Assembly (NCBI GenBank): GCA_021815445.1
Contig: JAKAGM010000002.1
Location: 31,373 to 95,372, forward strand
Direction: 5' to 3'
Length of the DNA: 64,000 bases
Source: a bacterium
GTDB lineage: Bacteria > Patescibacteriota > Patescibacteriia > UBA10025
Shown: piece by piece, positions 2,288-40,551 of the stretch
Layout of the letters: the number at the start of each line of letters is the position of its first letter
How positions within the stretch are numbered: position 1 is the stretch's first letter
Notes under the pieces: model-generated
Told to the model about the DNA's origin: nothing
What the model saw: the letters and a program-made list of their open reading frames with translations, nothing else
The model's database searches: none
Translations under genes and position numbers: made by a program

Positions 2288-2328
2288 GGGTGTAATAAAC
2301 AATTGCGCTCGGCTTTGTTATAAAACCA

Positions 2329-2353
2329 GAGCGCACCCTTTCGAGGGTGCGCG
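2329..2353. repeat. GC-rich palindromic hairpin GAGCGCACCCT-ttcg-AGGGTGCGCG, a member of the dispersed hairpin family
   Basis: Inverted repeat read directly. Related copies are at 32783, 3341 and 29937. Confidence 0.5.
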
Positions 2354-2595
2354 TGCATGTTTGATACCCGATCGCGGCCGCAGACCTGCCCGCCGCGTGG
2401 CTCCGGCAGGCGGGGAGCCGCGCTCGGAGGGGGAATCCACGCTTGACATTTTTTCATCTCCGGAGCATGATACCTTCTTCGTTCATTCACATTCTCGAGG
2501 GCAGTCGAGAGCGTGGCAAATCGCAGTTTCAGAATTCACCAAACGTAAACCATAGCCGATGGCGTCGACGGTCTAGGCGATTGGAGGGTACGTGT

Positions 2596-3234
2596 ATGTG
2601 TGAACTTTGTTCAGATGTTGCGAAACGAGGATTCAACAATCTGGTAATGCGCGCCGAGCTTTTTCGTTACGTGGAAGACTACGAGGTGTATCAGGGAACG
2701 CCAATGTTGTGCGCTACTATTGATCTTCTTTTCGCGGCAGATTCCCCTCTCCTCACGCGCGGCAAAGAGTACTGGCTGATTCATTTCGTTGATAATCTTG
2801 ATCAACGACATGTTGACGACCCCCGCATGCGACGTAATCCAGAGCTCTCCTTTGGGCTGAAAAAAATGGGACTTTGGGTTGCCGGACACAACCCAGGCCC
2901 ACAGCAAGAGCTCATGGACAATCTCCACCTCGTGGTTGAAGAGTGGAAGATAAAATGCCAACTATGGGTTGCCAGTAATGCGTGCGTGATCACTTGCGGA
3001 AACATTGGCGCAAAAAGCGGAGCCATCCGCTTGATGGATCCGTCCCATCTGGTATTCATGCAGTACTACAGCTCTCTCCGGTCACTTATCGGCCAGGCAT
3101 TGTGTACTGCCTTAGTCTCTGAGGAGAAAAGGGTACTTGTAGAAGCTCTTAACAAGCTCGAGGGCTTCATCAAGGTGTGCCTGAAGAGTTGGGATAAGGC
3201 CCAAGAGATGCTTGGAGTCCTCACTGCCAGTTAG
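2596..3234 (+). CDS. Hypothetical protein, about 212 aa
   Basis: ATG at 2596 (MCELCSDVAKRG...) sits 7 nt after a GGAGGG site. The 2443..3234 ORF runs through a GC-rich repeat, so the shorter start is preferred. No family recognised. Confidence 0.45.
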   Translation: MCELCSDVAKRGFNNLVMRAELFRYVEDYEVYQGTPMLCATIDLLFAADSPLLTRGKEYWLIHFVDNLDQRHVDDPRMRRNPELSFGLKKMGLWVAGHNPGPQQELMDNLHLVVEEWKIKCQLWVASNACVITCGNIGAKSGAIRLMDPSHLVFMQYYSSLRSLIGQALCTALVSEEKRVLVEALNKLEGFIKVCLKSWDKAQEMLGVLTAS

Positions 3235-3286
3235 TTCATCCACTCCCGCCGCTGCCCCGGTGGTTGATCATCAGATGAGCAAACCT

Positions 3287-3320
3287 CGCCCAAACCAAGC
3301 TTTGGGCGGGGAGTTTTTTA
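3287..3320 (+). terminator. Intrinsic terminator after the hypothetical gene
   Basis: Hairpin cgcccaaaccaagctttgggcg followed by gggagtttttta. Confidence 0.5.
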
Positions 3321-3340
3321 TTCTCAAGGACAAGGTTAAC

Positions 3341-3370
3341 CCGAGCGCAGGCAGAGACGCCTGCGCTCGG
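3341..3370. repeat. Palindromic repeat CCGAGCGCAGGC-agagac-GCCTGCGCTCGG, 12-bp perfect stem
   Basis: Perfect inverted repeat. It is the prototype of the family whose other copies are at 24660, 28755, 29937 and 40477. Confidence 0.6.
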
Positions 3371-3453
3371 GATAGTCTTTTTCGATCGCGGGCACGGCGG
3401 CCCGGGCGCGGATTCCTTTGTAAATATCCATATTTTTTGGTACAATAACCGCA

Positions 3454-4527
3454 ATGAACATCCTTGATGACATGAAAAAAATTATACGGCTGGACCGGCA
3501 GAATATGCGCGGGTCTATTGACGCACTCCCTGACCAGATACGGCATGCATGGGCGGAGAGCAGGAAGATAAAATTTCCTGCCCGCTATGCTCAGGCAAAA
3601 AAAGTTGTCGTCGCAGGCATGGGCGGCTCCATCATCGGCGCTCATCTTTTAGAATCAGTTTTTGCCGATGAGTTCAAAGTTCCGTTTGTACGGCTCGGCG
3701 ACTATCGTTTACCAGCTTGGGTGGGTCGCGATACGCTGGTGATTCTCTCCAGCTATTCGGGCACTACAGAGGAGGTTCTCGCGATGGGCAAAGATGCGCT
3801 CGCACGCGGGTGCATGGTGGCGGGTCTATCCGCGGGCGGGACTCTTGCGCGGATGATGAAGGCCCGTCGGTTGCTGTGGTATCACATTGCTCCGACATTC
3901 AACCCTTCTAACCAACCCAGAATGGCTACCGGCTACATGGTTTTTGGGCTGCTTGGTTTATTGTCGCGGCTCCGATTCGTGCACCTCGGCAGCCGGGATG
4001 TAGAGCATATAGTTGCCACATTGCAAGCAAAGCACCACCATCTCGGAATCAAAAAACCGGTACGTAATAACATCGCAAAAACGATTGCCGCGAGACTTGT
4101 CGGCAAATATATCCTCTTTGTTTCTGCGGAACACTTAATCGGCAACGGGCATATCGCCGCAAACCAAATTAATGAGAATGCAAAACAGTTTGCCGCGTAC
4201 TTTTCCCTGCCGGAACTCAATCATCATCTCCTGGAAGCGCTCCGGTTTCCGCGTGAAAATCGGCGCCTGCTCACTGCCGTCTGCTTCCAATCACAGCGTT
4301 ATCACCCGCGGAACCAGCGCCGAGTAAATGCCACTGTCCGCATCCTCCAGCAACAGGGTATCCGCGCGATCATGGTCCCTGTGCGGGGGAAATCCAAACT
4401 TGATGAGGCATTACAAACTGTCCAGCTCGGTGCGTATTCCGGTTACTATCTTGCCATCCTGAACAGGCTAAACCCGGCGCCTATTACCTGGGTCGATGCG
4501 TTTAAGCGCATCATGGCCAGGGCGTAA
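3454..4527 (+). CDS. Bifunctional phosphoglucose/phosphomannose isomerase (SIS domain, archaeal-type PGI/PMI)
   Basis: VVVAGMGGSIIGAHLL and SSYSGTTEE motifs. The ~350-aa length fits the PGI/PMI family. Confidence 0.65.
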   Translation: MNILDDMKKIIRLDRQNMRGSIDALPDQIRHAWAESRKIKFPARYAQAKKVVVAGMGGSIIGAHLLESVFADEFKVPFVRLGDYRLPAWVGRDTLVILSSYSGTTEEVLAMGKDALARGCMVAGLSAGGTLARMMKARRLLWYHIAPTFNPSNQPRMATGYMVFGLLGLLSRLRFVHLGSRDVEHIVATLQAKHHHLGIKKPVRNNIAKTIAARLVGKYILFVSAEHLIGNGHIAANQINENAKQFAAYFSLPELNHHLLEALRFPRENRRLLTAVCFQSQRYHPRNQRRVNATVRILQQQGIRAIMVPVRGKSKLDEALQTVQLGAYSGYYLAILNRLNPAPITWVDAFKRIMARA

Positions 4528-4570
4528 GCGTTTCCATGCGCGCTTTGATGTAAGGGCTGATCTTTCCCGT

Positions 4571-6187
4571 ATGACAACGTCTCACGCCACCCTGTCATGG
4601 TTTCAGACTCACCGCCGTGTTATCGCGGCGCTTTGTCTATTTGCCTTCGCATTTGTATTTTTCCTGTGGCTACAGGATGACCCGACATTTGCGGACCCCG
4701 ACTCGTTTTATCACGCCAAAATGGCCCTGCTCATCCGCGATCAGGGAATCGTCAAAGATTTTCCCTGGCTCCAGGCCACCGTCCTCGCGAAATCTTACAC
4801 TGATCAGCACCTTTTATACCATATTGCCCTGATCCCGTTTGTAACTTTTTTCCAGCCCATTGTCGGGATTAAAATAGCTACTGTTTTGCTTGCCGCCGCC
4901 GTTGTTGAAATGGTGTATCTGCTGCTCTCTGCATTACGAGTCCGGTTTGCCGTGCTGTATGCGTTTATATTGCTTGCAATCGGTCCGTTTATCTTCCGCA
5001 TGAGCTTGGCGAAAGCCCCGAGTGTGTCCATGCTTTTTCTGCTCAGCGGAATATTGCTGATGTTCAAACGCAGACGGTGGTGGCTCTTTATTCTTTCGTT
5101 CCTCTACGTCTGGGCGTACGGCGGCTTTACCCTGTTGCTCGTCGCGGCGGCGATATGGAGCGGAATAGGGTTTTTTGAACAATTCATGCAATCTCCCGCC
5201 CGGATTGGGCGACGTCCCCTGGGTCTCATGATGCACTCGTTCGTGCGCAATGAACATGTCCGTACGGTTTTTTCCGTCTTTTCCGGGATTATCCTGGGCG
5301 TAGTCATCAATCCATATTTTCCGCACAACCTGTTTTTTTACTGGAGCCAACTTGTGCAGATTGGCATTATTAACTACCACTCGGTCATCGGCGTGGGAAA
5401 CGAATGGTATCCTTACCCGTTCATGGACCTGATCTCCAGCACGATATTTCTCACCGTCATCGTGATAATCGCGCTCGTGCTTTTTTCCGTCTTTCTCAGG
5501 TCGCAGCGCCGGCGCTCGTGGATGTTCTTTATCATGGCGGCGTTCTTTTTTCTCCTGACGTTAAAATCAAAACGGTATGTCGAATATTACGTGCCGTTTG
5601 GAATGCTTTTTGGCGCTACGGCTCTGGACACTTCACTCGGACGCATCGATTTCCGGCACTTTTTACGCGATGTCATGGGATGGTATTTTAAACATAAAGT
5701 ATTTGCCATGATTCTTATCGTTTATTTCCTCGTGACCCTTCCAGCCATTGCGGTGCGCGACACTGTCAGTATTAAAGGAGATCTTCGCGGAGGATCTTCT
5801 GTCACGAAATTTGCAGCGGCGAGCAGCTGGCTCGAGAACAATACCCCCGAGCATGCCGTCGTTTTTCATTCAAGCTGGGACGAATTTCCGCTGCTTTTTT
5901 ACCATAATACGCACAATTACTATATTGTCGGCCTCGACCCGACGTTTATGTATACGTACAACAAAGACCTCTATCAAAAAAATGTCGATATTACGACAGG
6001 CGTCGGTGTCCCCAAGATTCAGCAGGTACTCCAAAAAGATTTCAAGGCAAATTATGTTTTTATCGAAAAACACCACGGAGGCATGCACTCGCTGATCAGC
6101 GCCCTCCCCGACGCGAAACTTGTCTATGAGGATAGTGAAGCGTGGATCTATTATTTGCCGCCCGTGCAGAATGATTCCTCTTCCTAA
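4571..6187 (+). CDS. Polytopic membrane protein, GT-C-fold glycosyltransferase-like (G1)
   Basis: More than 10 predicted TM helices. The first extracytoplasmic loop has FADPDSFYHAKMA, a DxD-YH motif that resembles the acidic EL1 motif of GT-C enzymes. There is no WWDYG, so it is not an STT3/AglB. Start chosen at MTTSHATLSW to avoid overlapping the PGI/PMI gene. Confidence 0.4.
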   Translation: MTTSHATLSWFQTHRRVIAALCLFAFAFVFFLWLQDDPTFADPDSFYHAKMALLIRDQGIVKDFPWLQATVLAKSYTDQHLLYHIALIPFVTFFQPIVGIKIATVLLAAAVVEMVYLLLSALRVRFAVLYAFILLAIGPFIFRMSLAKAPSVSMLFLLSGILLMFKRRRWWLFILSFLYVWAYGGFTLLLVAAAIWSGIGFFEQFMQSPARIGRRPLGLMMHSFVRNEHVRTVFSVFSGIILGVVINPYFPHNLFFYWSQLVQIGIINYHSVIGVGNEWYPYPFMDLISSTIFLTVIVIIALVLFSVFLRSQRRRSWMFFIMAAFFFLLTLKSKRYVEYYVPFGMLFGATALDTSLGRIDFRHFLRDVMGWYFKHKVFAMILIVYFLVTLPAIAVRDTVSIKGDLRGGSSVTKFAAASSWLENNTPEHAVVFHSSWDEFPLLFYHNTHNYYIVGLDPTFMYTYNKDLYQKNVDITTGVGVPKIQQVLQKDFKANYVFIEKHHGGMHSLISALPDAKLVYEDSEAWIYYLPPVQNDSSS

Positions 6188-7397
6188 ATATTACCTTGCC
6201 GCAGGACTAGTCATGGCCGCTCTCGCAATAGTTTGGGGCGGTTTCGTCATGGCTCAACCAATCTACGATATCGGTGCAAAGTCTACACCTTTGGTACGCG
6301 ACCAACAGGAGACAATCAGTGTCTATTTTAATCGCGCCGAGTTCATCCCTCGTCATGAGTTTCCCTATTCCCATGTTCTGGAAGAATACCCTGTGCTTGG
6401 CGTGCTTTATATCAGTCTCCCTCGTCTGTTTACCCAGGATCCCGGCGGGTCCATGCAGATATTTTCATTCATGAGCCTGCTGGTCCTGTGCGCGCTGGTC
6501 GCAGTGACTTCCGCACTCCTGAGATTTTTTAAGCGATCTCCGTGGTATCTAACACTTTTTCTCCTGCCTGCAACGCTGTATTTTGCTTTTAACCGTTTTG
6601 ATATTCTCATTGCGCTTATTGTCCAGATAAGTCTGTACATGCTGGTTCGGCGACGGTATGCCTGGGCAATTTTCCTCCTTGCCATAAGTTTTTTTGTGAA
6701 ATGGTACGGCATTCTTTTCGTGCCCGTATATTTGGTATACATGAAAAATACTGTTGCCCCGGAGGTATGGCGAAAGTCATTTCGAAGGATGCTGCGGATC
6801 ATAGGGATAACACTGGTGGTTCCCACAGTCGTCTTATTCATCTTTGCGGGAGTTAACAGCATTCTTCCCTACGCGTTTCACGCCTCACGCGGTATCGAGT
6901 ATGGCAATGTTTTAGTTCCTTTTCTCGAGAGAATGTATCGTGTCCTTCCGCCTTCTCTCGTCCGTTTCCTGATGAAAGCGATTCCGCAGCTTCTTTTTGC
7001 CGGTCAGATTATTCTCCCGCTTGTTATGGCATTAAATCCTAGCGGTTTTATACAAAGAATCAAATCGCACCGCGATGTAGTGCGGTGGATGGTTATTATT
7101 GTCCTTCTTTTCCTCCTTTTCGGGAAATTTTATTCGCCGCAATTTATCCTTTGGTTATTGCCCCTCCTTATTCTTCTCGTACGGCGGTTTTCTGACATCT
7201 TGTTGTTTATTACACTTGACCTCATACACTACCTGTCGTTTCCGCTCATCTATATTCAGTCAGGGTATAATTCCGACGCTTACGCGTTAATGGCGTTTAT
7301 TCGCACGCTCGTATACTGCATCGTGCTGTTCAAAGCACTCCCCGCTACCCGCGCATGGTTTCCCGCAACATCATTTGTAGATACCCAAGAAGGATGA
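6171..7397 (+). CDS. Polytopic membrane protein, putative GT-C/DUF2029-like glycosyltransferase (G2)
   Basis: About 11 hydrophobic segments and no soluble domain. Start uncertain; MIPLPK overlaps the end of G1. Confidence 0.35.
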   Translation: MIPLPKYYLAAGLVMAALAIVWGGFVMAQPIYDIGAKSTPLVRDQQETISVYFNRAEFIPRHEFPYSHVLEEYPVLGVLYISLPRLFTQDPGGSMQIFSFMSLLVLCALVAVTSALLRFFKRSPWYLTLFLLPATLYFAFNRFDILIALIVQISLYMLVRRRYAWAIFLLAISFFVKWYGILFVPVYLVYMKNTVAPEVWRKSFRRMLRIIGITLVVPTVVLFIFAGVNSILPYAFHASRGIEYGNVLVPFLERMYRVLPPSLVRFLMKAIPQLLFAGQIILPLVMALNPSGFIQRIKSHRDVVRWMVIIVLLFLLFGKFYSPQFILWLLPLLILLVRRFSDILLFITLDLIHYLSFPLIYIQSGYNSDAYALMAFIRTLVYCIVLFKALPATRAWFPATSFVDTQEG

Positions 7398-8143: not shown

Positions 8144-8210
8144 TTCCGGCAGTCTATCTTTAATTATCTATTTCCATTATTATTCTTGATATAAGTATTT
8201 TTACATTTGT

Positions 8211-9869: not shown

Positions 9870-9902
9870 CCGTATGCGTCTCCGTATCCATGGCATGGTG
9901 CT

Positions 9903-11456: not shown

Positions 11457-11691
11457 TTGCCAGCGGACGGTTACGAAACTGTCAGCACCCCTCATTTTTT
11501 ATTGCTTCGTTCCGTAAGAAGTCAAATGCTCCCATTATTATGTACTGCGGGCTTCTTGTCCACCTTGTGTCACCCCGGTGAACCCATATCTCAAACCACC
11601 GGGAATGTTTTTTGCGAACATATCCCCTGTGCGCAGCTATAGTTACTACTCCCATGATATATGGTGCATGCCCGTGGAGTCCTCTTCCGGA

Positions 11692-15529: not shown

Positions 15530-15533
15530 AATT

Positions 15534-19393: not shown

Positions 19394-19729
19394 CTAGGCC
19401 AGTTTCATCCCGTTCGGCACCGGCTTGTCAGGGCGTGCAAGGACCACGTCACCATTTTCTAACACAAAACCAGTCGTTAAAACTTCTGAGATGAAACCGG
19501 CAATATTCTTAGGAGGAAAGTTTGTCACGCAGATTACCTGTGTTCCGATAAGTTTCTCAAGCGGGTAGAGCGTAGTAATTTGCGCGCTAGACTGTTTCAC
19601 ACCGATTTCGCCAAGGTCAATCCATAGTTTATATGCCGGTTTTCGCGCTTCGGGAAAAAACTCGGCACGAACGATTGTTCCCGCACGTATACCTACTTTT
19701 TCGAATTCTTCCCAGGTGATAGTTGGCAT
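19394..19729 (-). CDS. csaA: tRNA-binding protein CsaA (EMAP/Myf domain)
   Basis: [29 protein letters not shown]...[15 protein letters not shown] closely matches CsaA. Confidence 0.75.
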
Positions 19730-19781
19730 AGAGGTTGTAATATACCGTTTATAAGTTGATTAGGCGCCTGCGTCGATCAGC

Positions 19782-20622: not shown

Positions 20623-20723
20623 TACTCGGTTTCCGCGCCTTAGGAAAAAGTTCGGCGCGAACGATTGTTCCCGCGCGTATGCCGGATTTTTCAAATTTAT
20701 CCCGGGTGATTGTTGAAATATTC
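20623..20723 (-). pseudogene. Remnant of a second csaA 5' end (first ~30 codons only)
   Basis: About 80% nucleotide identity to 19640-19735. It would encode [28 protein letters not shown] and then stops. Confidence 0.5.
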
Positions 20724-23180: not shown

Positions 23181-23202
23181 GCGCGGGCAGAGCCGCCCGC
23201 GC
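23181..23202. repeat. GC palindrome GCGCGGGC-agagcc-GCCCGCGC just after the stop of the hydrolase gene
   Basis: Perfect 8-bp inverted repeat. Related to cgcgggcacggcggcccgggcgcg at 3380. Confidence 0.45.
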
Positions 23203-23213: not shown

Positions 23214-24452
23214 TTATTTTTTCTCGGTCTCCCGCTTCGCCATATCTTTCAACACTTTCCCGACTCGACCCGTATAATCACGCGGTCGCTGGTAAATTTC
23301 ATCGTGTTTCATTGGCAGGATTTCTGTCCGGACATTAGGATTATCTCGTAGAGCCTCTTTTGCCTTACTCATCTGTTCTTTGGGAAAAAGCCCATCCTCA
23401 CTTCCGTAGACGATATACATATTTGTATCTGCGTCTATGTCCTTTAGGGTTTGCAGCATGCCCCCCTTTGCGATGGTAAGAGCTTCCCAGAGCACCAGGC
23501 GCAGCCCTTCTCTATACCTTCCTCGTGCAGTGTTTGCGCCGGAGTCTTGTATAATATCCTTTGTTACAGCACGGTACATGTCCGTCTCTTGTTGAGTCGC
23601 ATCCTGCAAGCTAAATTCGCCTTGTCCGCCAGCTTCTTCCCAGGCTTGTTGCAACGACTTCCCAAATGTCTCTTGGTAATCCCTTTCCATCTCAGCCATT
23701 TCTTGGTCGGTAAGAGGCTTGCGCCGCTTTGTAGCAATTTTACTCCCCAACGTTTCAGGAAAATACCGTCTTGCCAGTTGAAAGACATTTTCTTCATTAA
23801 CGCCGCCGGGATGTAGAAGGACCAGGTCTTTGACTTTCTCAGGATGCGCTTTGGCCATCTCTGCCGCAATAATTGAGCCCATTGAAGACGAAACAACGCT
23901 AAGCTCCTCTGTTGTAAGGTTGTTTCCCGACTGCGCTTCGTTAGCGCGGATAGCATCAACGGCGCGACTCAGCGATTCAGCAAACGGGGCGAACGAGCGT
24001 TCCTTCCGTGAAAACTTCATCCACTCCTTCGGCGCGGAATCCGACTTGCCCGTTGACGGCTGGGACATGACGATGACACGTTTTTTTTCTCGGAGCGCCA
24101 GCAGTTTCGCAAACGCATCCGGACTGCGTAATGATGAACCGTAGCCGGGGATATGCACGACTGTATGTTCATTGTTTTTGACCGCTTCAGCCTTTTCCTG
24201 GTCAGTTCGTACATCCAATACAACATATTCGATTTTCATATGCTGATTCTCGAATTCTGGGGTGGAGATCTCTACAAACTGCGGGCTCGCAAACTGCTTG
24301 TCCAGCTCAACTAATTTCCCCTGCTCTTCGGGTGAGAGCTCGCCGTACTCCATGGCAGGTTTCCCTCGCTGCGGTTTCTGTTCCGGGGTATCTTGCCGAG
24401 CCGGTGCATCGGGCGCTGTGAATTGGGCTTGTTCTGGAGATAGTTGTTCCAT
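23214..24452 (-). CDS. Alpha/beta hydrolase fold protein with a disordered N-terminal region
   Basis: Nucleophile-elbow-like SSSMGS and an HPGG segment. N-terminal ~60 aa are low-complexity. Confidence 0.45.
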   Translation of the reverse strand: MEQLSPEQAQFTAPDAPARQDTPEQKPQRGKPAMEYGELSPEEQGKLVELDKQFASPQFVEISTPEFENQHMKIEYVVLDVRTDQEKAEAVKNNEHTVVHIPGYGSSLRSPDAFAKLLALREKKRVIVMSQPSTGKSDSAPKEWMKFSRKERSFAPFAESLSRAVDAIRANEAQSGNNLTTEELSVVSSSMGSIIAAEMAKAHPEKVKDLVLLHPGGVNEENVFQLARRYFPETLGSKIATKRRKPLTDQEMAEMERDYQETFGKSLQQAWEEAGGQGEFSLQDATQQETDMYRAVTKDIIQDSGANTARGRYREGLRLVLWEALTIAKGGMLQTLKDIDADTNMYIVYGSEDGLFPKEQMSKAKEALRDNPNVRTEILPMKHDEIYQRPRDYTGRVGKVLKDMAKRETEKK

Positions 24453-24540
24453 AATTTCCTGGATGATAATAACGTACTACGTTACTCAATTGTAGCGTGT
24501 TTGTCAATTGTTGTCGCGCGGTTGGAATGTTTACGCGGGC

Positions 24541-24684
24541 CGAATTTTAGTACACGCACCCAGACCCGCCCGCCGCACGGCTACGCTGCACGAAGCGTTT
24601 CGCGTAGTGAAGCTTCGACAGGCGGGGCCGGGTGCGCCTCGAGGTGAGTTTACCTCATCGCGCAGGCAGGGACGCCTGCGCTTG
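24541..24684. repeat. GC-rich intergenic repeat island: composite of a cagacc-gcccgccgc module and a GCGCAGGC-agggac-GCCTGCGC hairpin
   Basis: cacccagacccgcccgccgcacggct...caggcggggcc parallels 2385-2425 (gcagacctgcccgccgcgtggct...caggcgggga). The hairpin at 24660-24681 matches the 3341 prototype. Confidence 0.5.
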
Positions 24685-24687
24685 CGG

Positions 24688-25347
24688 TTACTTTACCGGA
24701 TATCGTATGACTGTCTTCAGTTTACTCGGCGCAACTCTCCGCGGGTCACCCAGGTAGATTTCGTGGTGGTGTCCGGCGATTTTGTACCCTTTTTCCTTGA
24801 TAAAGGCCTTGAGTTTCTCGATATTGGGTCTTTCTTTATCATACGGGCCGATGTGCATTATCTGTGCTGATAGTCCCTCGGTAAAAGTCTTTAAGACGAT
24901 ATTTCTAAGTTTCGAGCTGGGTTTTTCATGTCCGCCAGAGGCGGATCCGCCTTTGGCGGATTTTTTTGCCGCACGTTCTTTTATCAATTTGATGGCGTCG
25001 GTGATGTGTTTCTGTGTAATGTGGTTCGGTTGAGCGATCATGAGGCGCCAGAGCCACTCCCCAGGTTTCTTCTGATCAAACGGTTTATTTCCCTTCATCC
25101 ACCACAAGCCGTCAAGCGGGGGTATGGTGTACTCGGGACCTTTTTTTGCAAACTTCAAGGTAAATTTTACCGTGTACGCAATACTATAGAGCGCCTGGAT
25201 CGCCTGTTTAAAATCGGGATTTTTTCCGGGGTTACCTCCTTTGCCGTCTACCATGAGGTAGTTCATTTTTGGAACCTTCACCAGTACCGGCGTGGTGGGC
25301 GGGAGGTAGAGCTGTTTAAAGTCCTTTTTGTAGTCGATTTTTTTCAT
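24688..25347 (-). CDS. GyrI-like small-molecule-binding domain protein
   Basis: Typical GyrI-like architecture (MKKIDYKKDFKQLY..., ...IYLGDPRRV) with a C-terminal HHHEIY motif. Confidence 0.55.
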   Translation of the reverse strand: MKKIDYKKDFKQLYLPPTTPVLVKVPKMNYLMVDGKGGNPGKNPDFKQAIQALYSIAYTVKFTLKFAKKGPEYTIPPLDGLWWMKGNKPFDQKKPGEWLWRLMIAQPNHITQKHITDAIKLIKERAAKKSAKGGSASGGHEKPSSKLRNIVLKTFTEGLSAQIMHIGPYDKERPNIEKLKAFIKEKGYKIAGHHHEIYLGDPRRVAPSKLKTVIRYPVK

Positions 25348-27111: not shown

Positions 27112-27337
27112 TCTACGGCTCGCGCCGAGATCATCATGCCCCGAGATCATCTCAACGGGCTCTTTTTTATCAAAAGATCACGGGTGATATATCGCCCAGC
27201 GCAGCTTGTGCTTAATAAAAATGCTTTTTTTGCAATATATCTGCTTGACAATTCACATTGACGCATGTTAACACACACTAATGACTGTATAACAGAACTA
27301 GACGTAAACGATGTTCATTGATAAGGAGAAGTCAGAG

Positions 27338-28621
27338 ATGTCGAAAAGACGAGTCGTTATTACCGGCTTGGGTGCGGTCACCCCACTCGGGAACAATGTT
27401 CAGGAATTGTGGGCCAACTTGCTGCAGGGCAAAAACGGCGTCGGCCCGATTACCCGTTTCGACGCCGGCGCCTTTACCACCCGAATCGCCGCCGAGGTCA
27501 AAGACTTTGACCCGATGCCGTGGCTGGACGCCAAGGAAGCCTCGCGGATGGATCGCTGCACGCAGTTTGGCATCGTGGCAGCGGAACAAGCACTCCAGGA
27601 CGCTGGGGTGAAGCCAAGGGTTCAACCTGGAGAGCAAGGCAATGCTGACGCTGAGGTCATACTAGACCGCGCTCGCGTCGGGGTCATTATCGGCTCGGGT
27701 ATTGGCGGGCTGGAAACGACTGCAGCCAACTGCCAAACTCTGTTCACGCGCGGACCTCACAATGTCAGTCCGCTCATGATTCCCCGGATGATCCCGAACA
27801 TCACCTCGGGCATCGTTGCCATACGGTACGGCTTCCGCGGGCCCAACTACTGTACCGTGTCTGCCTGCGCATCGGCGAACCATAGTATAATCGGCGCAGT
27901 CCACTCCATCGTGCTGAGTGAAGCGGACATGGTCATCACTGGAGGAACGGAAGCGGCCATCATCCCCCTGGGCGTGGCCGGATTCGCCAAAATGCGGGCG
28001 CTTTCAAGGCGAAACGATGAGCCGGCACGCGCTTCTCGGCCCTTTGACCGCGAACGGGATGGATTCATTATGGGTGAAGGGGCGGGCATCCTCGTCCTGG
28101 AAGAACTGGAGCATGCCCTGGCCCGGAAAGCGAACATTTACGCCGAGGTGCTGGGAGTAGGCATGTCCGCCGATGCCTATGACCTTACCGCGCCCGACCC
28201 CGATGGAGTCGGCGCCTGGCTCGCGATGATTCGGGCACTCAACAGCGGCGATATCTCTTTGGAGGAAGTGGACTACATCAACGCCCACGGCACTTCCACC
28301 TCGCTCAACGATCCGATCGAAACCAGGGCCATCAAACGACTCTTCGGTGCGCGGGCCCACGATATTCCTGTGTCCTCCACCAAGTCGATGATCGGGCATT
28401 TGCTCGGCGCCGCCGGAGGGGTCGAACTCATTGCCACCGCTCTGTCAGTGGCTCAAGGCATGATTCATCCGACGCGGAACTATGAGTTCCCGGACGATGA
28501 CTGCGACCTGGACTATGTGCCTGAGGGGGCCAGGCAGCATCCGATCCGCGTCGCCCTGTCAAACGCCTTTGGCTTCGGCGGGCACAATGCCACCATCGCC
28601 GTCGGTGCATACCGACAGTAA
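27338..28621 (+). CDS. fabF: Beta-ketoacyl-ACP synthase II
   Basis: RRVVITGLGAVTPLG, active-site Cys in TVSACASANHS, NAHGTST and GHLLGAAG. AAGGAG ribosome-binding site. Confidence 0.85.
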   Translation: MSKRRVVITGLGAVTPLGNNVQELWANLLQGKNGVGPITRFDAGAFTTRIAAEVKDFDPMPWLDAKEASRMDRCTQFGIVAAEQALQDAGVKPRVQPGEQGNADAEVILDRARVGVIIGSGIGGLETTAANCQTLFTRGPHNVSPLMIPRMIPNITSGIVAIRYGFRGPNYCTVSACASANHSIIGAVHSIVLSEADMVITGGTEAAIIPLGVAGFAKMRALSRRNDEPARASRPFDRERDGFIMGEGAGILVLEELEHALARKANIYAEVLGVGMSADAYDLTAPDPDGVGAWLAMIRALNSGDISLEEVDYINAHGTSTSLNDPIETRAIKRLFGARAHDIPVSSTKSMIGHLLGAAGGVELIATALSVAQGMIHPTRNYEFPDDDCDLDYVPEGARQHPIRVALSNAFGFGGHNATIAVGAYRQ

Positions 28622-28754
28622 CTCAACCCTTGTACATTCGTTTCTGCACCTCAGCGCTTATCTGCTGGGGTTTTTCTTTATGATATGTGCACCTTAACCT
28701 TCGATTAACTCAAGATCATCGAGAAAAGGTGTGCTCGGAGGTTTAATGCAGGTC

Positions 28755-28776
28755 GCGCAGGCATTGGAGCCTGCGC
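28755..28776. repeat. Palindromic repeat GCGCAGGC-attggag-CCTGCGC
   Basis: Member of the hairpin family. Confidence 0.5.
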
Positions 28777-29433: not shown

Positions 29434-29853
29434 TTAATATATTCTTACCCCGTACTTTTTCACCAGAGTCCGTTTTTTTGATGTTTTGATCTCCGTATTA
29501 CTCATTAACTGCCGCAACAACGGTTTGGGCAGGACGGCTTTACCCGCCGCGCACATTTTTTTCTGCCAGATGAGCCGTTTAATGTGACCCAAATTGTGTT
29601 TTGACCAGAGACTATTTTGCCGGCGAGGGGAGAAGCGGATGATATGTTTTGTATCGCCCAGACTTTTTAAGATTCCATCTACCCAGCCATAACAAAGAGC
29701 TTCGTCAAGTGCTTCCTGGTAAGTCATCGTAGGCTTGTTAGCATGCTTTTTATAAAACAGCAACCAGGCGGAGTCCTGTTGACTATGGTTCTTTGCCAGC
29801 CACTTCCGGAAGAGTTGAGCGTTTTTAAAGTAAAAGATTTTGCCGACTTGCAT
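29434..29853 (-). CDS. YdeI/OmpD-associated family protein
   Basis: FRKWLAKNH...LLFYKK...ALCYGWVDG pattern. Confidence 0.5.
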   Translation of the reverse strand: MQVGKIFYFKNAQLFRKWLAKNHSQQDSAWLLFYKKHANKPTMTYQEALDEALCYGWVDGILKSLGDTKHIIRFSPRRQNSLWSKHNLGHIKRLIWQKKMCAAGKAVLPKPLLRQLMSNTEIKTSKKRTLVKKYGVRIY

Positions 29854-29936: not shown

Positions 29937-29959
29937 CGAGCGCAGAGACCTGCGCTCGG
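29937..29959. repeat. Palindromic repeat CGAGCGCAG-agac-CTGCGCTCGG
   Basis: Shortened version of the 3341 repeat. Preceded by GC-rich gccgaggctaggcgggcaggcg. Confidence 0.5.
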
Positions 29960-30012
29960 AAGTTAAAAAAAAGACTCAAAAGATTTAATTTGATTTACTC
30001 AATTCTTATCCG

Positions 30013-32631: not shown

Positions 32632-32782
32632 GTATTTGTAATAATTAGTAGCTACTCTCAATGAAATTATACACCCGCAAAACTAATATACAACATATGC
32701 ATTCATCAATTCTGTGGGTTAATAAATACCAAAAAACAGACCGAACACACGTTTCCCAGCGTACAATTGGTTTATTGATGAC

Positions 32783-32810
32783 GAGCGCACCCTAGAGAGG
32801 ATGCGCTCGG
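32783..32810. repeat. Palindromic repeat CGAGCGCA-ccctagagagga-TGCGCTCGG
   Basis: Same terminal arms as the 3341 and 29937 copies. Confidence 0.5.
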
Positions 32811-32832
32811 TTGGCTGTGATATTTCGAATTA

Positions 32833-33306
32833 TTAAATCGGATTTCCCGCATTATCCCGTCCGTGTACCCAGTCGTACCGCTCCACGAAACGGAGGTAAA
32901 AACCGAAAGGATCTAGCATCCTGAAGTCTAATTTGTCAAAACGGATTTTCAGCGGCCCAATAATGGAATCCGGGTACAGACGGAAAATTTTTTCATAAAG
33001 CGCCTTGATGTCATCATGCGGCAAAATTATTTCCACCCCATATCCGCGCGGAGTATCCTTGGGAAAGCGCTTGAAATATGACTGCTCATAAATATGTTCA
33101 TTACCGCAATAAAAGTTAATAATACTGTCGCCGTTTTTCATGACCATGTAGCCCTTTTTCCCTTCGGGCTTTTTCTCCCACACGACATGGAACCCCAAGT
33201 CCCCGTAAAACTTCTTGACCAGCTCAAAATCGGGGACATGCAGTTCAAGTAAAATGTCAGAGGTTAATTTAGGCATGGCGGTATTCATAATATTATGTTT
33301 TTTCAT
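32833..33306 (-). CDS. VOC (glyoxalase/bleomycin-resistance) family protein
   Basis: LHVPDFELVKKFYGDLGF is a VOC beta-alpha-beta-beta-beta module. Confidence 0.5.
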   Translation of the reverse strand: MKKHNIMNTAMPKLTSDILLELHVPDFELVKKFYGDLGFHVVWEKKPEGKKGYMVMKNGDSIINFYCGNEHIYEQSYFKRFPKDTPRGYGVEIILPHDDIKALYEKIFRLYPDSIIGPLKIRFDKLDFRMLDPFGFYLRFVERYDWVHGRDNAGNPI

Positions 33307-33410
33307 ATTTTTTTATTTTAAAATTCCGTAATTAAAGTGAACCCTGCTATCAAATTTTACCGCAATTGATGCGGTAAGCATGAATTAGTCGTTAGATATA
33401 TCCAGTTTAC

Positions 33411-34622: not shown

Positions 34623-34735
34623 AGATTTTTGTTAGCTTTTCGGCGTGAAATTTTTGATTGAGGCAGGAGAGTTGGGTTATGAGTTTTTTGAACGTCATCT
34701 TATTGCCCTTACTCGTTATTAACAAGATCAGAAAT

Positions 34736-35704: not shown

Positions 35705-35777
35705 AGCCCCACTGACGGCACGAGGTAGGCGAGGTCAAACCAGCCGACTTGGTTTTATTGAGGGTTCAGTGACATTC

Positions 35778-36194
35778 CTATGTTTCATGCAGCTCGTAAG
35801 ATGTTTTTATCCACTGCAAGAGCTTAGCATCGACATCCTTTTTGCTCTTCAGGTCAAAGTAGTAGAGGTAGCGATTAGGGGACATGCGGATCATTTTATA
35901 TAGTTTCTTGGTTTTAATTTTACCATCAGTGCGGAAATCAATCCGGATTCTGTCCCGGAGCGCCCATACTCCGCCAAACGTGTATGTGCTGACCAGATGG
36001 ATACAGCAGGGCAGGGATTCTATTTTCACCGGTCCGATTTTTTTCGTGATTTCCTGCTTCAGGTGTCCAAACAGTCCCTTGGCGTATTCCTTATTCTTGA
36101 AATGGTTTGCGAGCGGGTAGCTGACGCAGGAGTGCGCCTGGTTTTTCTTCTCAAATTGCCGTTTGCACTTCGGGCAAGTCCAAAGTTTTTGCAT
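35778..36194 (-). CDS. Hypothetical protein with N-terminal zinc-finger-like CPKCx10HSC
   Basis: MQKLWTCPKCKRQFEKKNQAHSC. Adjacent to the AT-rich gene. Confidence 0.35.
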   Translation of the reverse strand: MQKLWTCPKCKRQFEKKNQAHSCVSYPLANHFKNKEYAKGLFGHLKQEITKKIGPVKIESLPCCIHLVSTYTFGGVWALRDRIRIDFRTDGKIKTKKLYKMIRMSPNRYLYYFDLKSKKDVDAKLLQWIKTSYELHET

Positions 36195-36246
36195 AAGTTA
36201 TCAATACATTGTCAGCTCCCGTTCAGCCGGGGGAGCTGGCGACCAA

Positions 36247-36651
36247 TTATGTCGTTGGATTAGAATTTTGAATCGCGGACTTTGGCTTGAATAATACCGG
36301 CCCCACAGCCACGCCGATAAATATCAGATAGGTGCCCAAATGGCCGAAGACTTTGCCGGCTGTCTGATTGGGGATGGCAATTATCAATAAGATGACTGCT
36401 ACCATTACTGCCCAGATTATTCCATAAGTTAAGGATTGTTTGATTGAAGCAGAATGAAGTCGGCGGGAAAACCACAATGAGCAGGCGGCCAATAGCATTG
36501 CGATAACCACCCCGACCCAGAGGAATTTCGCCGGGGGATACTCCGTGTCCTCAGTGCCGGTAACTAGCGACATGATAAAGATTAAAACCATCGTGATGAT
36601 GAAGAGCAGGAAGCCGAAGCCGAAGATTTTGAGATATGAAGTTTTTGGCAT
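36247..36651 (-). CDS. Small membrane protein (4 TM)
   Basis: Four hydrophobic helices. Confidence 0.4.
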   Translation of the reverse strand: MPKTSYLKIFGFGFLLFIITMVLIFIMSLVTGTEDTEYPPAKFLWVGVVIAMLLAACSLWFSRRLHSASIKQSLTYGIIWAVMVAVILLIIAIPNQTAGKVFGHLGTYLIFIGVAVGPVLFKPKSAIQNSNPTT

Positions 36652-36665
36652 AGCGGTTATAAAAG

Positions 36666-37379
36666 TTAATTTCTTTCTAAATATTTCTCAATGAACTCTT
36701 TTTCTTTTTTGATATTATTAGGATGAATGCCGCTTTCGCAGATGATGGGCGCGTCTATGTTTTTAATAGCCGCGACGATCTCTTTTTGATGCATTTCAAA
36801 AAGTGGCACATGAGGTTTTTCGGTCCCGAGTCCGCTTACATGGTAATGGGTGAGTTTATTGCCAAGCGCCGCATAGAATTGGTCGGCGAGTTTCATTGTC
36901 GGGTCGTTAGTTTTGATATGGTTCACGTCGAGGACGAAACGGAATGAAGGATCACTATCAATGAGTTTTTTCACGTCTTCCGGCGTCTTGCCGTATGGTT
37001 TGGTGTTGTCCATGTTTTCGAATGCTACAGGGAAGGACAGGTTGCCGAAGACCGTGATATCCTCTACGTCGCAGGGATGGATCACGACGGCATCAAGCGG
37101 CCTCAAAGCATTGATTTTACCGATTATTGCAAAGATCTTTTTTACCGCTTCATTATTTTTGTATTTCATTACCGGAGCGTGAAGGCTCATGTACGCGAAA
37201 CCGTCTAAGTCCTTTGCGGTAAGCGCATCCAGCCATCCCCACTCAATGCACTCTTTTCTGACAACGCCTAGCTCAACGGCAAGACAGCCGGCCTGCTTAA
37301 TGACTTTAAGCGCTTCTCTAGTATCAAGATACTGTGCAAATGTGCCGGTGGAAAACCCGACTGAAAAACCGAGGAGCAT
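36666..37379 (-). CDS. Sugar phosphate isomerase/epimerase (xylose-isomerase-like TIM barrel)
   Basis: The ~235-aa length and a VLDVNH...E...H pattern are typical of AP-endonuclease-2/xylose-isomerase-like TIM barrels. Confidence 0.45.
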   Translation of the reverse strand: MLLGFSVGFSTGTFAQYLDTREALKVIKQAGCLAVELGVVRKECIEWGWLDALTAKDLDGFAYMSLHAPVMKYKNNEAVKKIFAIIGKINALRPLDAVVIHPCDVEDITVFGNLSFPVAFENMDNTKPYGKTPEDVKKLIDSDPSFRFVLDVNHIKTNDPTMKLADQFYAALGNKLTHYHVSGLGTEKPHVPLFEMHQKEIVAAIKNIDAPIICESGIHPNNIKKEKEFIEKYLERN

Positions 37380-37394
37380 GTTGAATGACGATAA

Positions 37395-38219
37395 TTATTT
37401 CGCCGAAACCGTGATCGGGGTCGACTTCGCTTCTATGCCGTTAACGAAGACCTTCACAAAATAATTCCCCGCTGTTGACGGCAAGGCGAAACAACAGGTG
37501 CCATTGGTGCCGGTTTGCAGGTTCGAAGGCGCGCTCTGCGGCTCAATCTCCCGTCCGGTACTGTCGGTTATTGAGAATGTTGATGCATCTCCTGCCTTAA
37601 AGGTTCCGGTAACGCTCAGGCCGAATTGGTCGCCGACCCGAAAGCTAGTGGTAGTCTCATAGGTATTAGTCGGACTGAAGGCAGTGCCTGCCGGGATACG
37701 CTGGAATTCCACCTTAGAGACCTGGCCGACGGAATTAGTGTTAGCTCCAACGCCGGCATTTACGGTCCCGTTAGTGTTTCCACCGGCCGCGGAGTTGGCG
37801 TTTGTTTTTGGTATGACAGTCAGTGTAATATTTCCGCAATCACGATCTGCGCAAATAAGATGGTAGGTGCCGCCCTGGTCATTATCCTGGATAATGGTGC
37901 CAAAAACGCCGTTAGTCGAAGCTGCAGCCGGCACTTCCCGGAACTTGAAATTTACCGGCTGGTCATCGCTCGTCAGGCGGATCTCTATCGTGTCGCCGGC
38001 ATGAAAGGTCATGGTTTTATAGTTCAGCTGGCCGTTTACCAGCTTGAGGTTAAAGACCTTATTGGAGCCGGTCAACGTATAGGGCGCCTCCGTCACGACT
38101 GCATTAATGTTTTTTGCAGTGTTGGCCGTAGTGGTCGCGGTTTTCTTAGTACAACCGGAGAGTATCAGCGCTGCCATAGCTAAAAGAACACAACTGCCGA
38201 GAATGAACTTTTTGTTCAT
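37395..38219 (-). CDS. Lipoprotein, hypothetical
   Basis: LILSGC lipobox. The C-terminal NGTCCFALPSTAGNYFVKVFVNG motif is shared with the next gene. Confidence 0.45.
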   Translation of the reverse strand: MNKKFILGSCVLLAMAALILSGCTKKTATTTANTAKNINAVVTEAPYTLTGSNKVFNLKLVNGQLNYKTMTFHAGDTIEIRLTSDDQPVNFKFREVPAAASTNGVFGTIIQDNDQGGTYHLICADRDCGNITLTVIPKTNANSAAGGNTNGTVNAGVGANTNSVGQVSKVEFQRIPAGTAFSPTNTYETTTSFRVGDQFGLSVTGTFKAGDASTFSITDSTGREIEPQSAPSNLQTGTNGTCCFALPSTAGNYFVKVFVNGIEAKSTPITVSAK

Positions 38220-38268
38220 ATGGATGGTGCTAGTTAATGAGTTAATTAACTAAAAATAGCGAAATTAA

Positions 38269-39294
38269 TCATTCAGAAATCAGTTCGAGCGTTTTTACCA
38301 GGTTATTGCCATAGTAAAAAAGGTATTGGTATCTGCCTTTGCCGGGAGGAGAAAAACAGCAGAGGCCGTTGGAGCCGCGTTTGGCATCCAGCTTTTGCTC
38401 GCCGCCGAAGATTTTACCAGCGGCATAATCGTAGACTTTTAAGGTGAGTGAGCCCTCGGATGGGAATGCGTTTGTCGTGGTAATGCTATACGCCAAGTCC
38501 TCGCTGCTGTCATCTAATCTCGAAATGCCGTAGGAGGCTGTCTGAGGCGGATCGTTTTTCTTGTGCGTGCCAAGCTCAATTGAGGCAAAATTATCGCTGT
38601 ATATGCGATCGTTCACTTTTTCGCCGCTGGCGCTGAAGCCTGCGTTAGCGCTGGTTCGGTTAGTGTTCGTGCCGGATCCGGCGATCTGCAGCGAATCAAG
38701 CAAATGGGTTACGATGCTTTTGTATTGCGTGACCCTGCTCGTAGGAACCGTCACTTCCATGAGCGCCCAGCTGGTCCTATTGTCTCCGGCGAAAAATATC
38801 AGGTAGCGGGAAAAAACGGTATATTGGTTGGCACCGGAAGTGACGTGTATTTCAGTCCGGGCGTCAGACTGATTTACACTTTCATTTGTCATGTCGGCGT
38901 TCGGGTTTTTATCAGCCCTGGCTTTGTCGTCAGCAACTATTTCAGCCATGCTCATTTTACTATCTACTACTCCTTTCTCGGATACTGACAGCACAACCGA
39001 ATCCGGGTTTGTAGAAAAATACATGATGCTATACCCATGGCGCTGTTCCTCAGGAATTGATTTTTGGACTTCTTCTGGAGTAACACTCGTCCATTCTTTC
39101 ACCATGTCAAAAACGTATAGTGAGTTGCTGGAATTGGTTTCATAAATGACATTCGGCGCCGAAACGTTAGCGTTGGACGCCGGCTGGTTTGTAACGTTGG
39201 CATTTGTGTTCGACCGCGTACCGAGCCAGTAGGCGCCGCCGGCTATGGCAAGCACGGCGAGTATGATGATTGTGATGACCACAGGTTTCTTCAT
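38269..39294 (-). CDS. Secreted/membrane-anchored hypothetical protein, paralogous C-terminal domain
   Basis: N-terminal TM helix. The C-terminal NGLCCFSPPGKGRYQYLFYYGNN parallels the lipoprotein. Confidence 0.4.
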   Translation of the reverse strand: MKKPVVITIIILAVLAIAGGAYWLGTRSNTNANVTNQPASNANVSAPNVIYETNSSNSLYVFDMVKEWTSVTPEEVQKSIPEEQRHGYSIMYFSTNPDSVVLSVSEKGVVDSKMSMAEIVADDKARADKNPNADMTNESVNQSDARTEIHVTSGANQYTVFSRYLIFFAGDNRTSWALMEVTVPTSRVTQYKSIVTHLLDSLQIAGSGTNTNRTSANAGFSASGEKVNDRIYSDNFASIELGTHKKNDPPQTASYGISRLDDSSEDLAYSITTTNAFPSEGSLTLKVYDYAAGKIFGGEQKLDAKRGSNGLCCFSPPGKGRYQYLFYYGNNLVKTLELISE

Positions 39295-39323
39295 ATGTGG
39301 TGTATTTGGTTAATCAATTTGCA

Positions 39324-39890
39324 CTATATTATTTTTCTATAAATTTGAACTAATCCGGCCATATTTTTCTTTGTCTCCTGTTTGCATGCCGGAAGAGTGA
39401 GAAGCGCGTACTTCTGGTTCATTTTTTCAATACAGTACTCTACCGATTTCTCCCAGGAAATGCCTCTGGATCCCAAGGCATGGAGAAAAATGAAACAGCC
39501 TTCGATTGTTAAGAATTTGTACCCCTCGGCATTTCTCATGATTTCAGATACCCGCGAGTGGGGCTTGGCACGGTCATGGTGTGTCCTGATGGCGTCGACG
39601 ATAATTATACGTTCGTTGTCAGCGACCTTCCATTTTCGCAAGTATCTGTCTGCAAGCGCGGCACTTAAGCGCGGATGATTTTCCATCTCGTAACTATGCC
39701 GCTTCGTGTGAAATACGACGTGAGCCAGATAGAGCGCGGCGACAACGAGGTGTCCGTTAGCATGATATTGTCGCGCGAGCTTTTTTCCCATGACGGCGGC
39801 AAGTTCGGTCAGTCCCCAAGCCGGAGCGCCATTTTTCTGAGTTTGGCGCTGCATGAGGGCGCGGGATTTAGAGATAATGTTACTTTTCAT
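39324..39890 (-). CDS. HD domain phosphohydrolase
   Basis: H...HD...H...D pattern (YHANGHLVVAAL...DAIRTHHD). Confidence 0.5.
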   Translation of the reverse strand: MKSNIISKSRALMQRQTQKNGAPAWGLTELAAVMGKKLARQYHANGHLVVAALYLAHVVFHTKRHSYEMENHPRLSAALADRYLRKWKVADNERIIIVDAIRTHHDRAKPHSRVSEIMRNAEGYKFLTIEGCFIFLHALGSRGISWEKSVEYCIEKMNQKYALLTLPACKQETKKNMAGLVQIYRKII

Positions 39891-40080
39891 TCTTTGTCTT
39901 TTTTTTCAATAATTTCCACGCCCCCTTAGGCACCAAACTGCGCCAGTTGCCGTCAGGCCATTCTTTATCCAAAATACTACCCGATACCCCTTCTAACGGT
40001 TCGACAAAGTCAACTGTCCATCCGTTTTCTTCGTATTTTTTTACTTTAAAATAATGATGGTAATCTTTCGCCGCAAGCAC
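39880..40080 (-). other. 66-codon ORF in the +1 frame relative to the nadM-like gene. It may be a C-terminal continuation disrupted at the C5G7 homopolymer.
   Basis: Reading through cccccggggggg (40089-40100) with a 1-nt shift gives ...DFIPPGAVIVLAAKDYHHYFKVKKYEENGW... Confidence 0.3.
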
Positions 40081-40429
40081 GATAACAGCCCCCGGGGGGG
40101 ATAAAGTCCTTCCAGTTTACTGTTTCATAATAAGCGAAGTGCGGCGCAATATGTACGCGACTCATATCGACACCGTGCTGCTGCAGGGAATTCCAGACCA
40201 TTTCATACCGCTCAAAGTATGTGTACGGATTATTTTTAGGATCTCGCGCTCGTTTCACACTTTGTTGCAAGTCAGCTTCAAGCTTCTCAAAATCCTGCGG
40301 AAGCTGTCTCAGCGGGTTGGCAATACCAATCCACAGCTCATCGTATTTTTCGAGTATTTTGAGAAACGTATTGAAATGCCCGTTATGCAAAGGCTGAAAC
40401 CTTCCGTGGTTGTATCCGATAGTTTTCAT
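40046..40429 (-). CDS. Nicotinamide-nucleotide adenylyltransferase-like (archaeal NadM-type cytidylyltransferase), possibly frameshifted at the 3' end
   Basis: The start MKTIGYNHGRFQPLHNGH carries the (H/T)xGH motif as in NadM (GRFQPFHKGH). The ORF ends immediately after the G/C homopolymer. Confidence 0.5.
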   Translation of the reverse strand: MKTIGYNHGRFQPLHNGHFNTFLKILEKYDELWIGIANPLRQLPQDFEKLEADLQQSVKRARDPKNNPYTYFERYEMVWNSLQQHGVDMSRVHIAPHFAYYETVNWKDFIPPGGCYRACGERLPSLF

Positions 40430-40476
40430 ATCAATGAGACTGGTTAATGACAGTTTGATTCCTACTTTCTTTGTCT

Positions 40477-40498
40477 CGCGCAGGCTCAGAGGCCTGCG
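40477..40498. repeat. Palindromic repeat CGCGCAGGC-tcagag-GCCTGCG
   Basis: Family member, between the GIY-YIG and nadM-like genes. Confidence 0.5.
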
Positions 40499-40551
40499 TT
40501 CTTTATATCTTTTACTTGTCATTGCGATCCCGCATAGCGGGAGAAGCAATC

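Follow-up and report, generated by a model that had tools for sequence, protein, structure and literature searches.

The closest described counterparts of the elements reported here are the repetitive extragenic palindromes (REPs) and bacterial interspersed mosaic elements (BIMEs) of the proteobacterium Escherichia coli, with their Y and Z REPs and the RayT (TnpA-REP) protein. These are extragenic palindromes of 20–40 nt that often lie just past stop codons, occur as several unit types differing at few stem positions, form mosaics of alternating orientation and carry a short asymmetric end motif, GTAG, by the hairpin. Related systems of Pseudomonas and Neisseria, in which inverted REP doublets with a short spacer (REPINs) go together with REP-associated tyrosine transposases (RAYTs), have persisted vertically for a long time, staying at fixed positions among related genomes (Bertels and Rainey, bioRxiv 10.1101/2021.07.10.451892). 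We analyzed a 64-kb stretch of DNA, called the window in the following (record positions 29670–93669 of the 359-kb contig DAIENG010000002.1, metagenome-assembled genome GCA_027341205.1), which together with its flanking loci comprises about 91 kb of this contig. It contains a main hairpin repeat, which we named M1, and two further palindromic modules, M2 and M3. We consider, with a probability of roughly 0.6, that M1, M2 and M3 are REP/BIME-like repetitive extragenic palindromes of a bacterium of the Parcubacteria group within the Patescibacteria, also called the Candidate Phyla Radiation (CPR), a view that does not exclude a role as host signals. We base it on the extragenic palindromes themselves, their compensatory stems, the asymmetric end motif, the mosaics and inverted doublets, the near-identity of units in distant genomes and the GTAG-tailed counterpart in other phyla. 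Patescibacteria have genomes of about 1 Mb that rank with the most streamlined known and are thought to be poor in repetitive or selfish DNA, and their transcription signals are almost unstudied. A conserved palindrome family with about 1 copy per 10 kb would be either a long-lived passenger surviving extreme streamlining or a shared regulatory or termination signal.

We found ten copies of M1, eight in the window and two just past its right end (69661 and 70682 in the window frame). The initial annotation of this DNA had named eight hairpins with shared arms, and all eight are present at, or within two bases of, the positions it gave. Its proposal that they form a family also held in the window, where they exceed chance: the pattern GCGCAGGC-N6-GCCTGCGC, allowing at most 2 mismatches, gave 5 matches compared to 0.01 expected from shuffled sequences, and a covariance model built from nine copies recovered all ten (21.6–42.3 bits, E-values 7e-8 to 7e-3). 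The model detected no further M1 in 105 kb, nor in an additional 9.3 kb of the contig. The ten copies in about 91 kb amount to one per 9 kb, a local density similar to that of REPs in E. coli, which occur about once per 8–9 kb; a REP family typically has tens to hundreds of copies scattered across its genome. The core of M1 consists of GCGCA, one of the variants GGC, CCC, GGGC or CCTT, a loop, the complement of the variant and TGCGC, and the consensus of about 30 nt reads 5'-(A/C)GCGCA(GG/CC)C-A(G/C)AG(A/C)N-G(CC/GG)TGCGC-T(C/T)GG-3'. Stems measure 7–13 bp, loops 4–12 nt and complete units 22–32 nt.

At two adjacent stem pairs we observed a compensatory exchange from GG:CC to CC:GG in 3–4 of the ten local copies. 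The covariation score calculated from these copies was 0.296, compared to 0.18 in shuffles, and exceeded that of every slid register. We then compared 29 distinct M1 copies from about 18 contigs, in which the two pairs are GC in 19–20 copies and CG in 8–9; this proportion is biased, because 17 of the 29 were found via patterns that fix the GGC arms. Together these data show that M1 is a repeat family whose hairpin is maintained via compensatory changes; M1 folds as single-stranded DNA or RNA. It is highly improbable that M1 is a double-stranded DNA site for a dimeric regulator or nucleoid protein, like an operator or a parS-like site. Palindromic arms and the clustering of the ten copies in about 80 kb beside an rRNA operon would suit such a site; however, it is the pairing that is conserved by compensatory change and not the half-site sequence itself, the spacer ranges from 4 to 12 nt, and the copies are located mostly at the 3' ends of genes instead of promoters. 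Moreover, isolated half-sites (8-mers outside hairpins) are not enriched, with 4–5 found compared to 2.6–2.9 expected, and neither is CGATCGCGG alone in the window. As half-sites outside hairpins are not over-represented, we also ruled out a DNA uptake sequence (DUS/USS). The 5' GTCGCGC of some copies, which we take to resemble a CRISPR repeat of type I-C, was set aside, as there are neither arrays nor a shared 3' handle.

M1 is asymmetric. On the best-scoring strand the loops are purine-rich, being AGAGAC, AGGGAC, AGAGCC or ACAGAG in 18 of the 29 copies. A T stands directly 3' of the stem in 28 of 29, whether it can pair or not, and is followed by (C/T)GG and a further G or T, with GG kept in 21–24 of 29. 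The asymmetric strand is the plus strand in nine of the ten local copies, the exception being the copy at 2331, which is probably inverted relative to the others. These orientation calls lean partly on a model derived from plus-strand copies; that loop and tail also occur together in other genomes does not depend on this model. As the plus-strand GC skew is mostly negative and the minus strand carries most genes, the minus strand is probably the leading strand. The purine-loop strand is antisense to the upstream gene in five window copies and sense in one (3340–3371), and in a Peribacteria locus (L120) the purine loop also lies in the sense of the upstream gene. In this small sample, the orientation of M1 tracks the chromosome strand better than transcription.

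All ten copies are intergenic and fill 10 of the 56 gaps that measure 30 nt or more. The initial annotation had likewise placed the hairpins behind stop codons or between genes that converge or diverge. Six of the eight window copies are found 6, 11, 11, 23, 52 and 54 nt past the stop of a minus-strand gene. The closest is the GGC-type copy at 24660–24681 (plus strand, GCGCAGGC-AGGGAC-GCCTGCGC), 6 nt after the stop of the gene at 24688–25347. The GGGC variant at 23181–23202 (plus strand, GCGCGGGC-AGAGCC-GCCCGCGC) lies 11 nt after the stop of the gene at 23214–24452. At the same distance from the stop of a minus-strand HAD gene we found the GGC-type copy at 28755–28776 (plus strand, GCGCAGGC-ATTGGA-GCCTGCGC, tail TAGG); the convergent FabF gene has a terminator of its own at 28648–28671. 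The CCC-type copy at 32782–32809 (plus strand, tail TCGG), which can be paired as CGAGCGCA-12 nt-TGCGCTCG or as CGAGCGCACCCT-AGAG-AGGATGCGCTCG, follows the stop of the gene at 32833–33288 by 23 nt. A short form at 29937–29958 (plus strand, CGAGCGCAG-AGAC-CTGCGCTCG) is located 54 nt after a subtilase stop and 83 nt upstream of a DUF8412 gene. The degenerate GGC-type copy at 40478–40499 (plus strand, GCGCAGGC-TCAGAG-GCCTGCGT, with one G-T pair) is separated by 52 nt from the stop of the GIY-YIG gene that precedes it and by 48 nt from the corrected start of the gene that follows. This copy lies within a long open reading frame (ORF), of which the cytidylyltransferase Pfam domain begins at residue 51; we count it as intergenic because the position of the domain and an MKTIGY... 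start place the start of the gene near 40429.

The remaining two window copies differ in context. The 13-bp perfect stem of the GGC-type copy at 3340–3371 (plus strand, CCCGAGCGCAGGC-AGAGAC-GCCTGCGCTCGGG, tail TCGG) is found 105 nt past the stop of a plus-strand gene, and the canonical terminator at 3287–3316 comes between the two. The CCC-type copy at 2331–2352 (minus strand, unit 2326–2354, GCGCACCCT-TTCG-AGGGTGCGC, with a T-C-T-G-G tail on the minus strand) sits between divergent genes. Considering all ten copies, 28755 and 70682 lie between convergent genes, and 2331 and 69661 between divergent genes or promoters.

A strong GC hairpin soon after a stop codon is also what an intrinsic terminator looks like. 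We regard it as scarcely credible, however, that the M1 copies are unrelated intrinsic terminators alike by chance, or miniature inverted-repeat transposable elements (MITEs). Although they are GC-rich hairpins in intergenic DNA, a chance resemblance is contradicted by the 5 matches found where 0.01 were expected, and M1 has no run of U (T in the DNA) on the strand of the preceding gene at any copy. Only 40478 was flagged as terminator-like, on the plus strand, which is opposite to its genes. Arms, loop and tail of M1 are common to copies and genomes, whereas the other terminators of the window have unique stems, and canonical terminators coexist with M1 at 3287 and 28648. The initial annotation had called the elements REP/MITE-like. 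The REP part of this description stands, as they are short extragenic palindromes that share arms and have compensatory stems and mosaics; the MITE part does not. MITEs measure 50–500 bp and have terminal inverted repeats and a target-site duplication, while M1 is a hairpin only, of 22–32 nt, without terminal inverted repeats around an internal segment. No flanking direct repeats were seen by eye, no dedicated search having been made. In Rfam we found no family matching the elements even at E≤1; only tRNA-Ser reached the gathering score.

We next turn to the modules that accompany M1. M2 (CGATCGCGGGC-loop-GCCCGCTCTCGG) occurs in four copies, every one 11–18 nt from an M1. Two lie in the window on the plus strand, at 2369–2427 (CGATCGCGGC...GCCGCGCTCGG, with M3 inside the loop) and at 3383–3411 (CGATCGCGGGC-ACGGCG-GCCCGGGCGCGG), and two are located right of the window on the minus strand. 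M1 and M2 thereby form mosaics at 2326–2427, at 3340–3411 and at two sites just outside the window. M3 (CAGACCNGCCCGCCGC..GGCT..CAGGCGGGG) corresponds to what the initial annotation had described as a second shared module. This module is real at 2381–2415 and 24561–24627, both on the plus strand; it has these two copies only, and each is found in the loop of another palindrome. The first (CAGACCTGCCCGCCGCGTGGCT-CCGG-CAGGCGGGG) is nested in the M2 loop. The second (CAGACCCGCCCGCCGCACGGCT...CAGGCGGGG) has a 36-nt hairpin insert in its own loop and is itself enclosed by an M1-like outer hairpin (CGCACCC/GGGTGCG, 24555–24636, plus strand), which results in three nesting levels. A linker hairpin without assigned strand (GAGGTG-AGTT-TACCTC, 24641–24656) lies between this nested hairpin and the M1 at 24660. 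Three consecutive hairpins, among them the triply nested one, thus occupy the 235-nt gap at 24453–24687, which has a folding z-score of −3.9 to −5.3. The asymmetry of M1 (its loop and T-Y-G-G tail), the module M2, the nesting and the occurrence of the same units in other Patescibacteria go beyond the initial annotation. Near-identical M2 and M3 were observed beside M1 doublets in two metagenome loci, L160 and L142, the M3 match being in L142, while loose searches for the M2 and M3 motifs in GC-rich loci gave noise only.

Two further observations concern these mosaics. A hairpin at 53965–53986, CGCCCTGTC-ATTC-GACAGGGCG, by a tRNA-Ser cassette, resembles CCCCGTC-ATTC-GACGGGG in the M2 loop of an unrelated metagenome contig (L160, 1334–1351), and the two may represent a fourth shared palindromic unit. 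In addition, an orphan ORF of 212 aa at 2596–3234 and another at 69886–70524 in the window frame (L004: 2435–3073) each have M1 and M2 on both sides.

The host can be placed by its proteins. The window has a G+C content of about 49%, and its proteins are singletons when clustered at 90% identity. The HhH-GPD glycosylase has relatives at 85–79% identity and a 63% match annotated as 'Patescibacteria group bacterium', and the DUF8412 protein has a 75% match annotated as 'Parcubacteria group bacterium'. FabF proved unsuited for finding relatives, its best homologues being 59% identical and from other phyla, whereas HhH-GPD and DUF8412 worked. The host is thus a Parcubacteria-like bacterium and, given this lineage, its genome is probably small.

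In order to see how widely M1 is distributed, we scanned genome contigs with the pattern MGCGCAGGC-N6-GCCTGCGCT and obtained at least 119 loci from many phyla. At least seven of the matches are from Patescibacteria, and their loops and tails agree with M1: Parcubacteria GW2011_GWA2_48_9 has GCGCAGGC-AGAGCC-GCCTGCGC-TCGG, and a Peribacteria contig has the loop AGGGAC. A scan of metagenomes with the loop included in the pattern gave 28 loci, of which 11 have a TAC tail and lie on GC-rich contigs, and nine have a TCGG or TTGG tail and lie on contigs of 42–54% G+C. In the other Patescibacteria loci the M1 copies are likewise intergenic, and the density in relatives is about 1 per 9–12 kb. Among the matches listed, contigs of Acidobacteriota, Chloroflexota, Armatimonadota and Kiritimatiellae show the identical arms GCGCAGGC and GCCTGCGC with purine-rich loops (AGGGAC, GGAA, GGAG) in several copies per locus or genome, and a tail of TAC, corresponding to GTAG on the opposite strand. 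Judged by their sequence, these palindromes of soil phyla look like classical GTAG-type REPs; they differ from M1 in the TAC tail, where M1 has T-Y-G-G, and in their GC-rich hosts. These palindromes and M1 agree in arms and loop but not in the end motif, which makes them useful for studying the diversification of REP families and of their recognition motifs.

Inverted M1 doublets were found in seven loci (L131, L142, L160, L140, L048, L150 and L155). They consist of a CCC-type unit, a spacer of 0–18 nt and a GGC-type unit in the opposite orientation, with the tails pointing outward, and are the usual form in lower-GC and Patescibacteria loci; an example is CCGA-GCGCACCC-CTCTGT-GGGTGCGC, a spacer of about 16 nt and GAGCGCAGGC-AGAGAC-GCCTGCGC-TCGG. 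The loops of doublet partners are complementary (CTCTGT/AGAGAC, CGCTGT/ACAGCG, TAGAGA/TCTCTA). Such doublets with a short spacer, present in the related contigs L142, L160, L140, L048 and L131, recall the layout of REPINs and BIMEs. Unlike in REPINs, the two units differ systematically, with CCC-type and GGC-type stems, and a long REPIN hairpin formed from an M1 doublet would therefore contain two mismatches per arm.

Two of the local copies are kept at the same positions in relatives. L130, in which the DNA of genes is 73–80% identical, has a counterpart of the 69661 copy at the corresponding position; it reads CGCGCGCCC-AGAGCC-GGGTGCGC-TCGGGGT and is flanked by the NUDIX operon on one side and by the 23S promoter, a consensus TTGACA-N17-TATAAT, on the other. 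By manual count from the printed sequences the two M1 are identical in 29 of 30 nt, while BLAST aligned only the adjoining 23S leader. At this spot our contig has an insertion that is absent in L130, consisting of an orphan 212-aa gene flanked by M2 and M1. In L131, a 75% relative, an inverted M1 doublet lies directly upstream of the DUF8412 gene, which is the site of the 29937 copy, and the upstream neighbour gene is a different one. L131 does not have the cluster of 24453–24687, because its GyrI-like gene is not followed by an intergenic gap. In L129 a degenerate M1 is located 12 nt past a stop codon.

These data also bear on a different explanation, in which M1 is a sequence-specific signal for RNA 3' ends (a factor-dependent terminator, a processing site or a stabiliser); a host protein common to Patescibacteria would read it via loop and tail, and M1 would be under selection instead of being mobile. 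We think this somewhat unlikely. The position of six of the eight window copies 6–54 nt past a minus-strand stop would be expected from such a signal, as would the two copies kept in place in relatives, in which the sequence identity greatly exceeds that of the non-coding DNA around them, and the constancy of loop and tail across distant contigs. The complementary loops of doublet partners could be counted in the same direction, but they would arise automatically if the partners are inverted copies of one unit. A simple signal should moreover have a constant orientation to transcription, whereas the purine loop is in the sense of the upstream gene at 3340 and in L120 and antisense in five window copies. 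Two copies (2331 and 69661) lie between divergent genes, and nesting and variable mosaics are unexpected as well.

If M1, M2 and M3 are REP/BIME-like, they would be copied rarely by a trans-acting enzyme that recognizes the folded hairpin together with the CRAG/T-Y-G-G end. By analogy, such an enzyme might act like the HUH/Y1 transposases (RAYTs), which act on REPs as single-stranded DNA. Copies would persist only between genes, and the strong hairpins 6–54 nt past stop codons, once present, probably act as a barrier at the 3' end of the upstream mRNA or stabilise this mRNA, like REPs of E. coli. Several observations weigh against this. The REP head GTAG is absent and replaced by C-R-A-G (the T-Y-G-G tail), so that only the stem-adjacent A is common to GTAG. 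In contrast to E. coli, the M1 units of this genome are mostly single and co-oriented (nine of ten), with few inverted pairs, and the host belongs to the Patescibacteria instead of the proteobacteria. No cognate RAYT, the gene of which typically has the repeats on both sides, was found for M1: a tblastn search with E. coli RayT as the sole query, which is a weak test, detected no RAYT or Y1 transposase in 81.5 kb of the contig and the 119 loci of the genome scan, nor in a further 247 kb, in which the 9.3-kb extension of the contig (to about 91 kb) is included. No Y1_Tnp domain is present in the Pfam annotations obtained for genes of the region outside about 12–17 kb and 44–52 kb. We saw nothing that would directly indicate recent movement; the species' assemblies all agree at about 100% identity, and no polymorphism is visible within the species because of this. 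Finally, the conservation at fixed positions (the copy at the 23S promoter in L130 and the DUF8412 site in L131) would fit a selected host function equally well.

Two kinds of local genes were considered as candidates for mobilising M1 and rejected. Small GIY-YIG nucleases occur three times in about 30 kb, and one is separated from an M1 by 52 nt; in other loci, however, M1 is not accompanied by them. The orphan 212-aa ORFs, as possible analogues of a transposase, are unrelated to each other and have no match in Pfam or NCBIfam and nothing significant in PDB. The one in the window (2596–3234) has about six distant homologues among 1.84 billion representatives, and its single-sequence AlphaFold model was unusable (predicted local distance difference test, pLDDT, of 37). 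In the literature we searched, we found no paper linking REP, REPIN or RAYT to CPR/Patescibacteria, the search on the motif gave only an unrelated Neisseria REP, and searches on the accession numbers gave nothing relevant. A broader proposal, which we make tentatively, is that M1, M2 and M3 constitute a mosaic palindrome system of the REP/BIME kind that is common to Patescibacteria and described by no paper in the literature searched. Its mobility would then depend on some enzyme that is not a classical RAYT, or else it would be maintained as a sequence-specific signal in RNA or DNA that a CPR-specific protein reads, with the loop, the T-Y-G-G tail, the complementary doublet loops and the nesting as recognition features.

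Besides the palindromes we recorded several other features of the region. On the minus strand at 53583–54042, the beginning of tRNA-Ser(CGA), 37 nt that reach to the anticodon loop, has an exact second copy 371 nt upstream, and between the two copies lie an 87-aa GIY-YIG ORF (53681–53944) and two GC hairpins (53965–54007). The locus looks like a minimal GIY-YIG cassette that is inserted in the tRNA gene and carries the 5' half in a copy of its own. The third of the small GIY-YIG genes (40552–40863, minus strand, 103 aa) has orthologs that are 77% identical in L131 and 53% identical in L130. Right of the window, L004 contains at 3748–7334 (65625–69211 in the window frame, minus strand) a 23S-5S unit without an upstream 16S. 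Its 23S gene measures 3405 nt, compared to 2925 nt in the model, and contains an 86-aa GIY-YIG ORF (L004: 5696–5956). Two other assemblies of the species (L005 and L127) join different flanks within the 23S gene, which means either chimeric assemblies or a second rRNA copy. FabF (KAS II; 27311–28621) is full-length, and its best homologues, at about 59% identity, come from Firmicutes, Planctomycetota, Armatimonadota and other phyla; the sequence comparison suggests that it was acquired horizontally. A direct repeat of 94 nt with 80% identity connects 19637–19730, at the start of a gene for a tRNA-binding domain (19394–19729), and 20627–20720, just upstream of an EamA-like gene. In the relative L131 (GCA_043809205.1), a helix-turn-helix gene followed by a weak reverse-transcriptase (RVT_1) gene is found at 3985–6415, near GIY-YIG and NUDIX genes, and this pair could be a unit resembling a retron or a diversity-generating retroelement.

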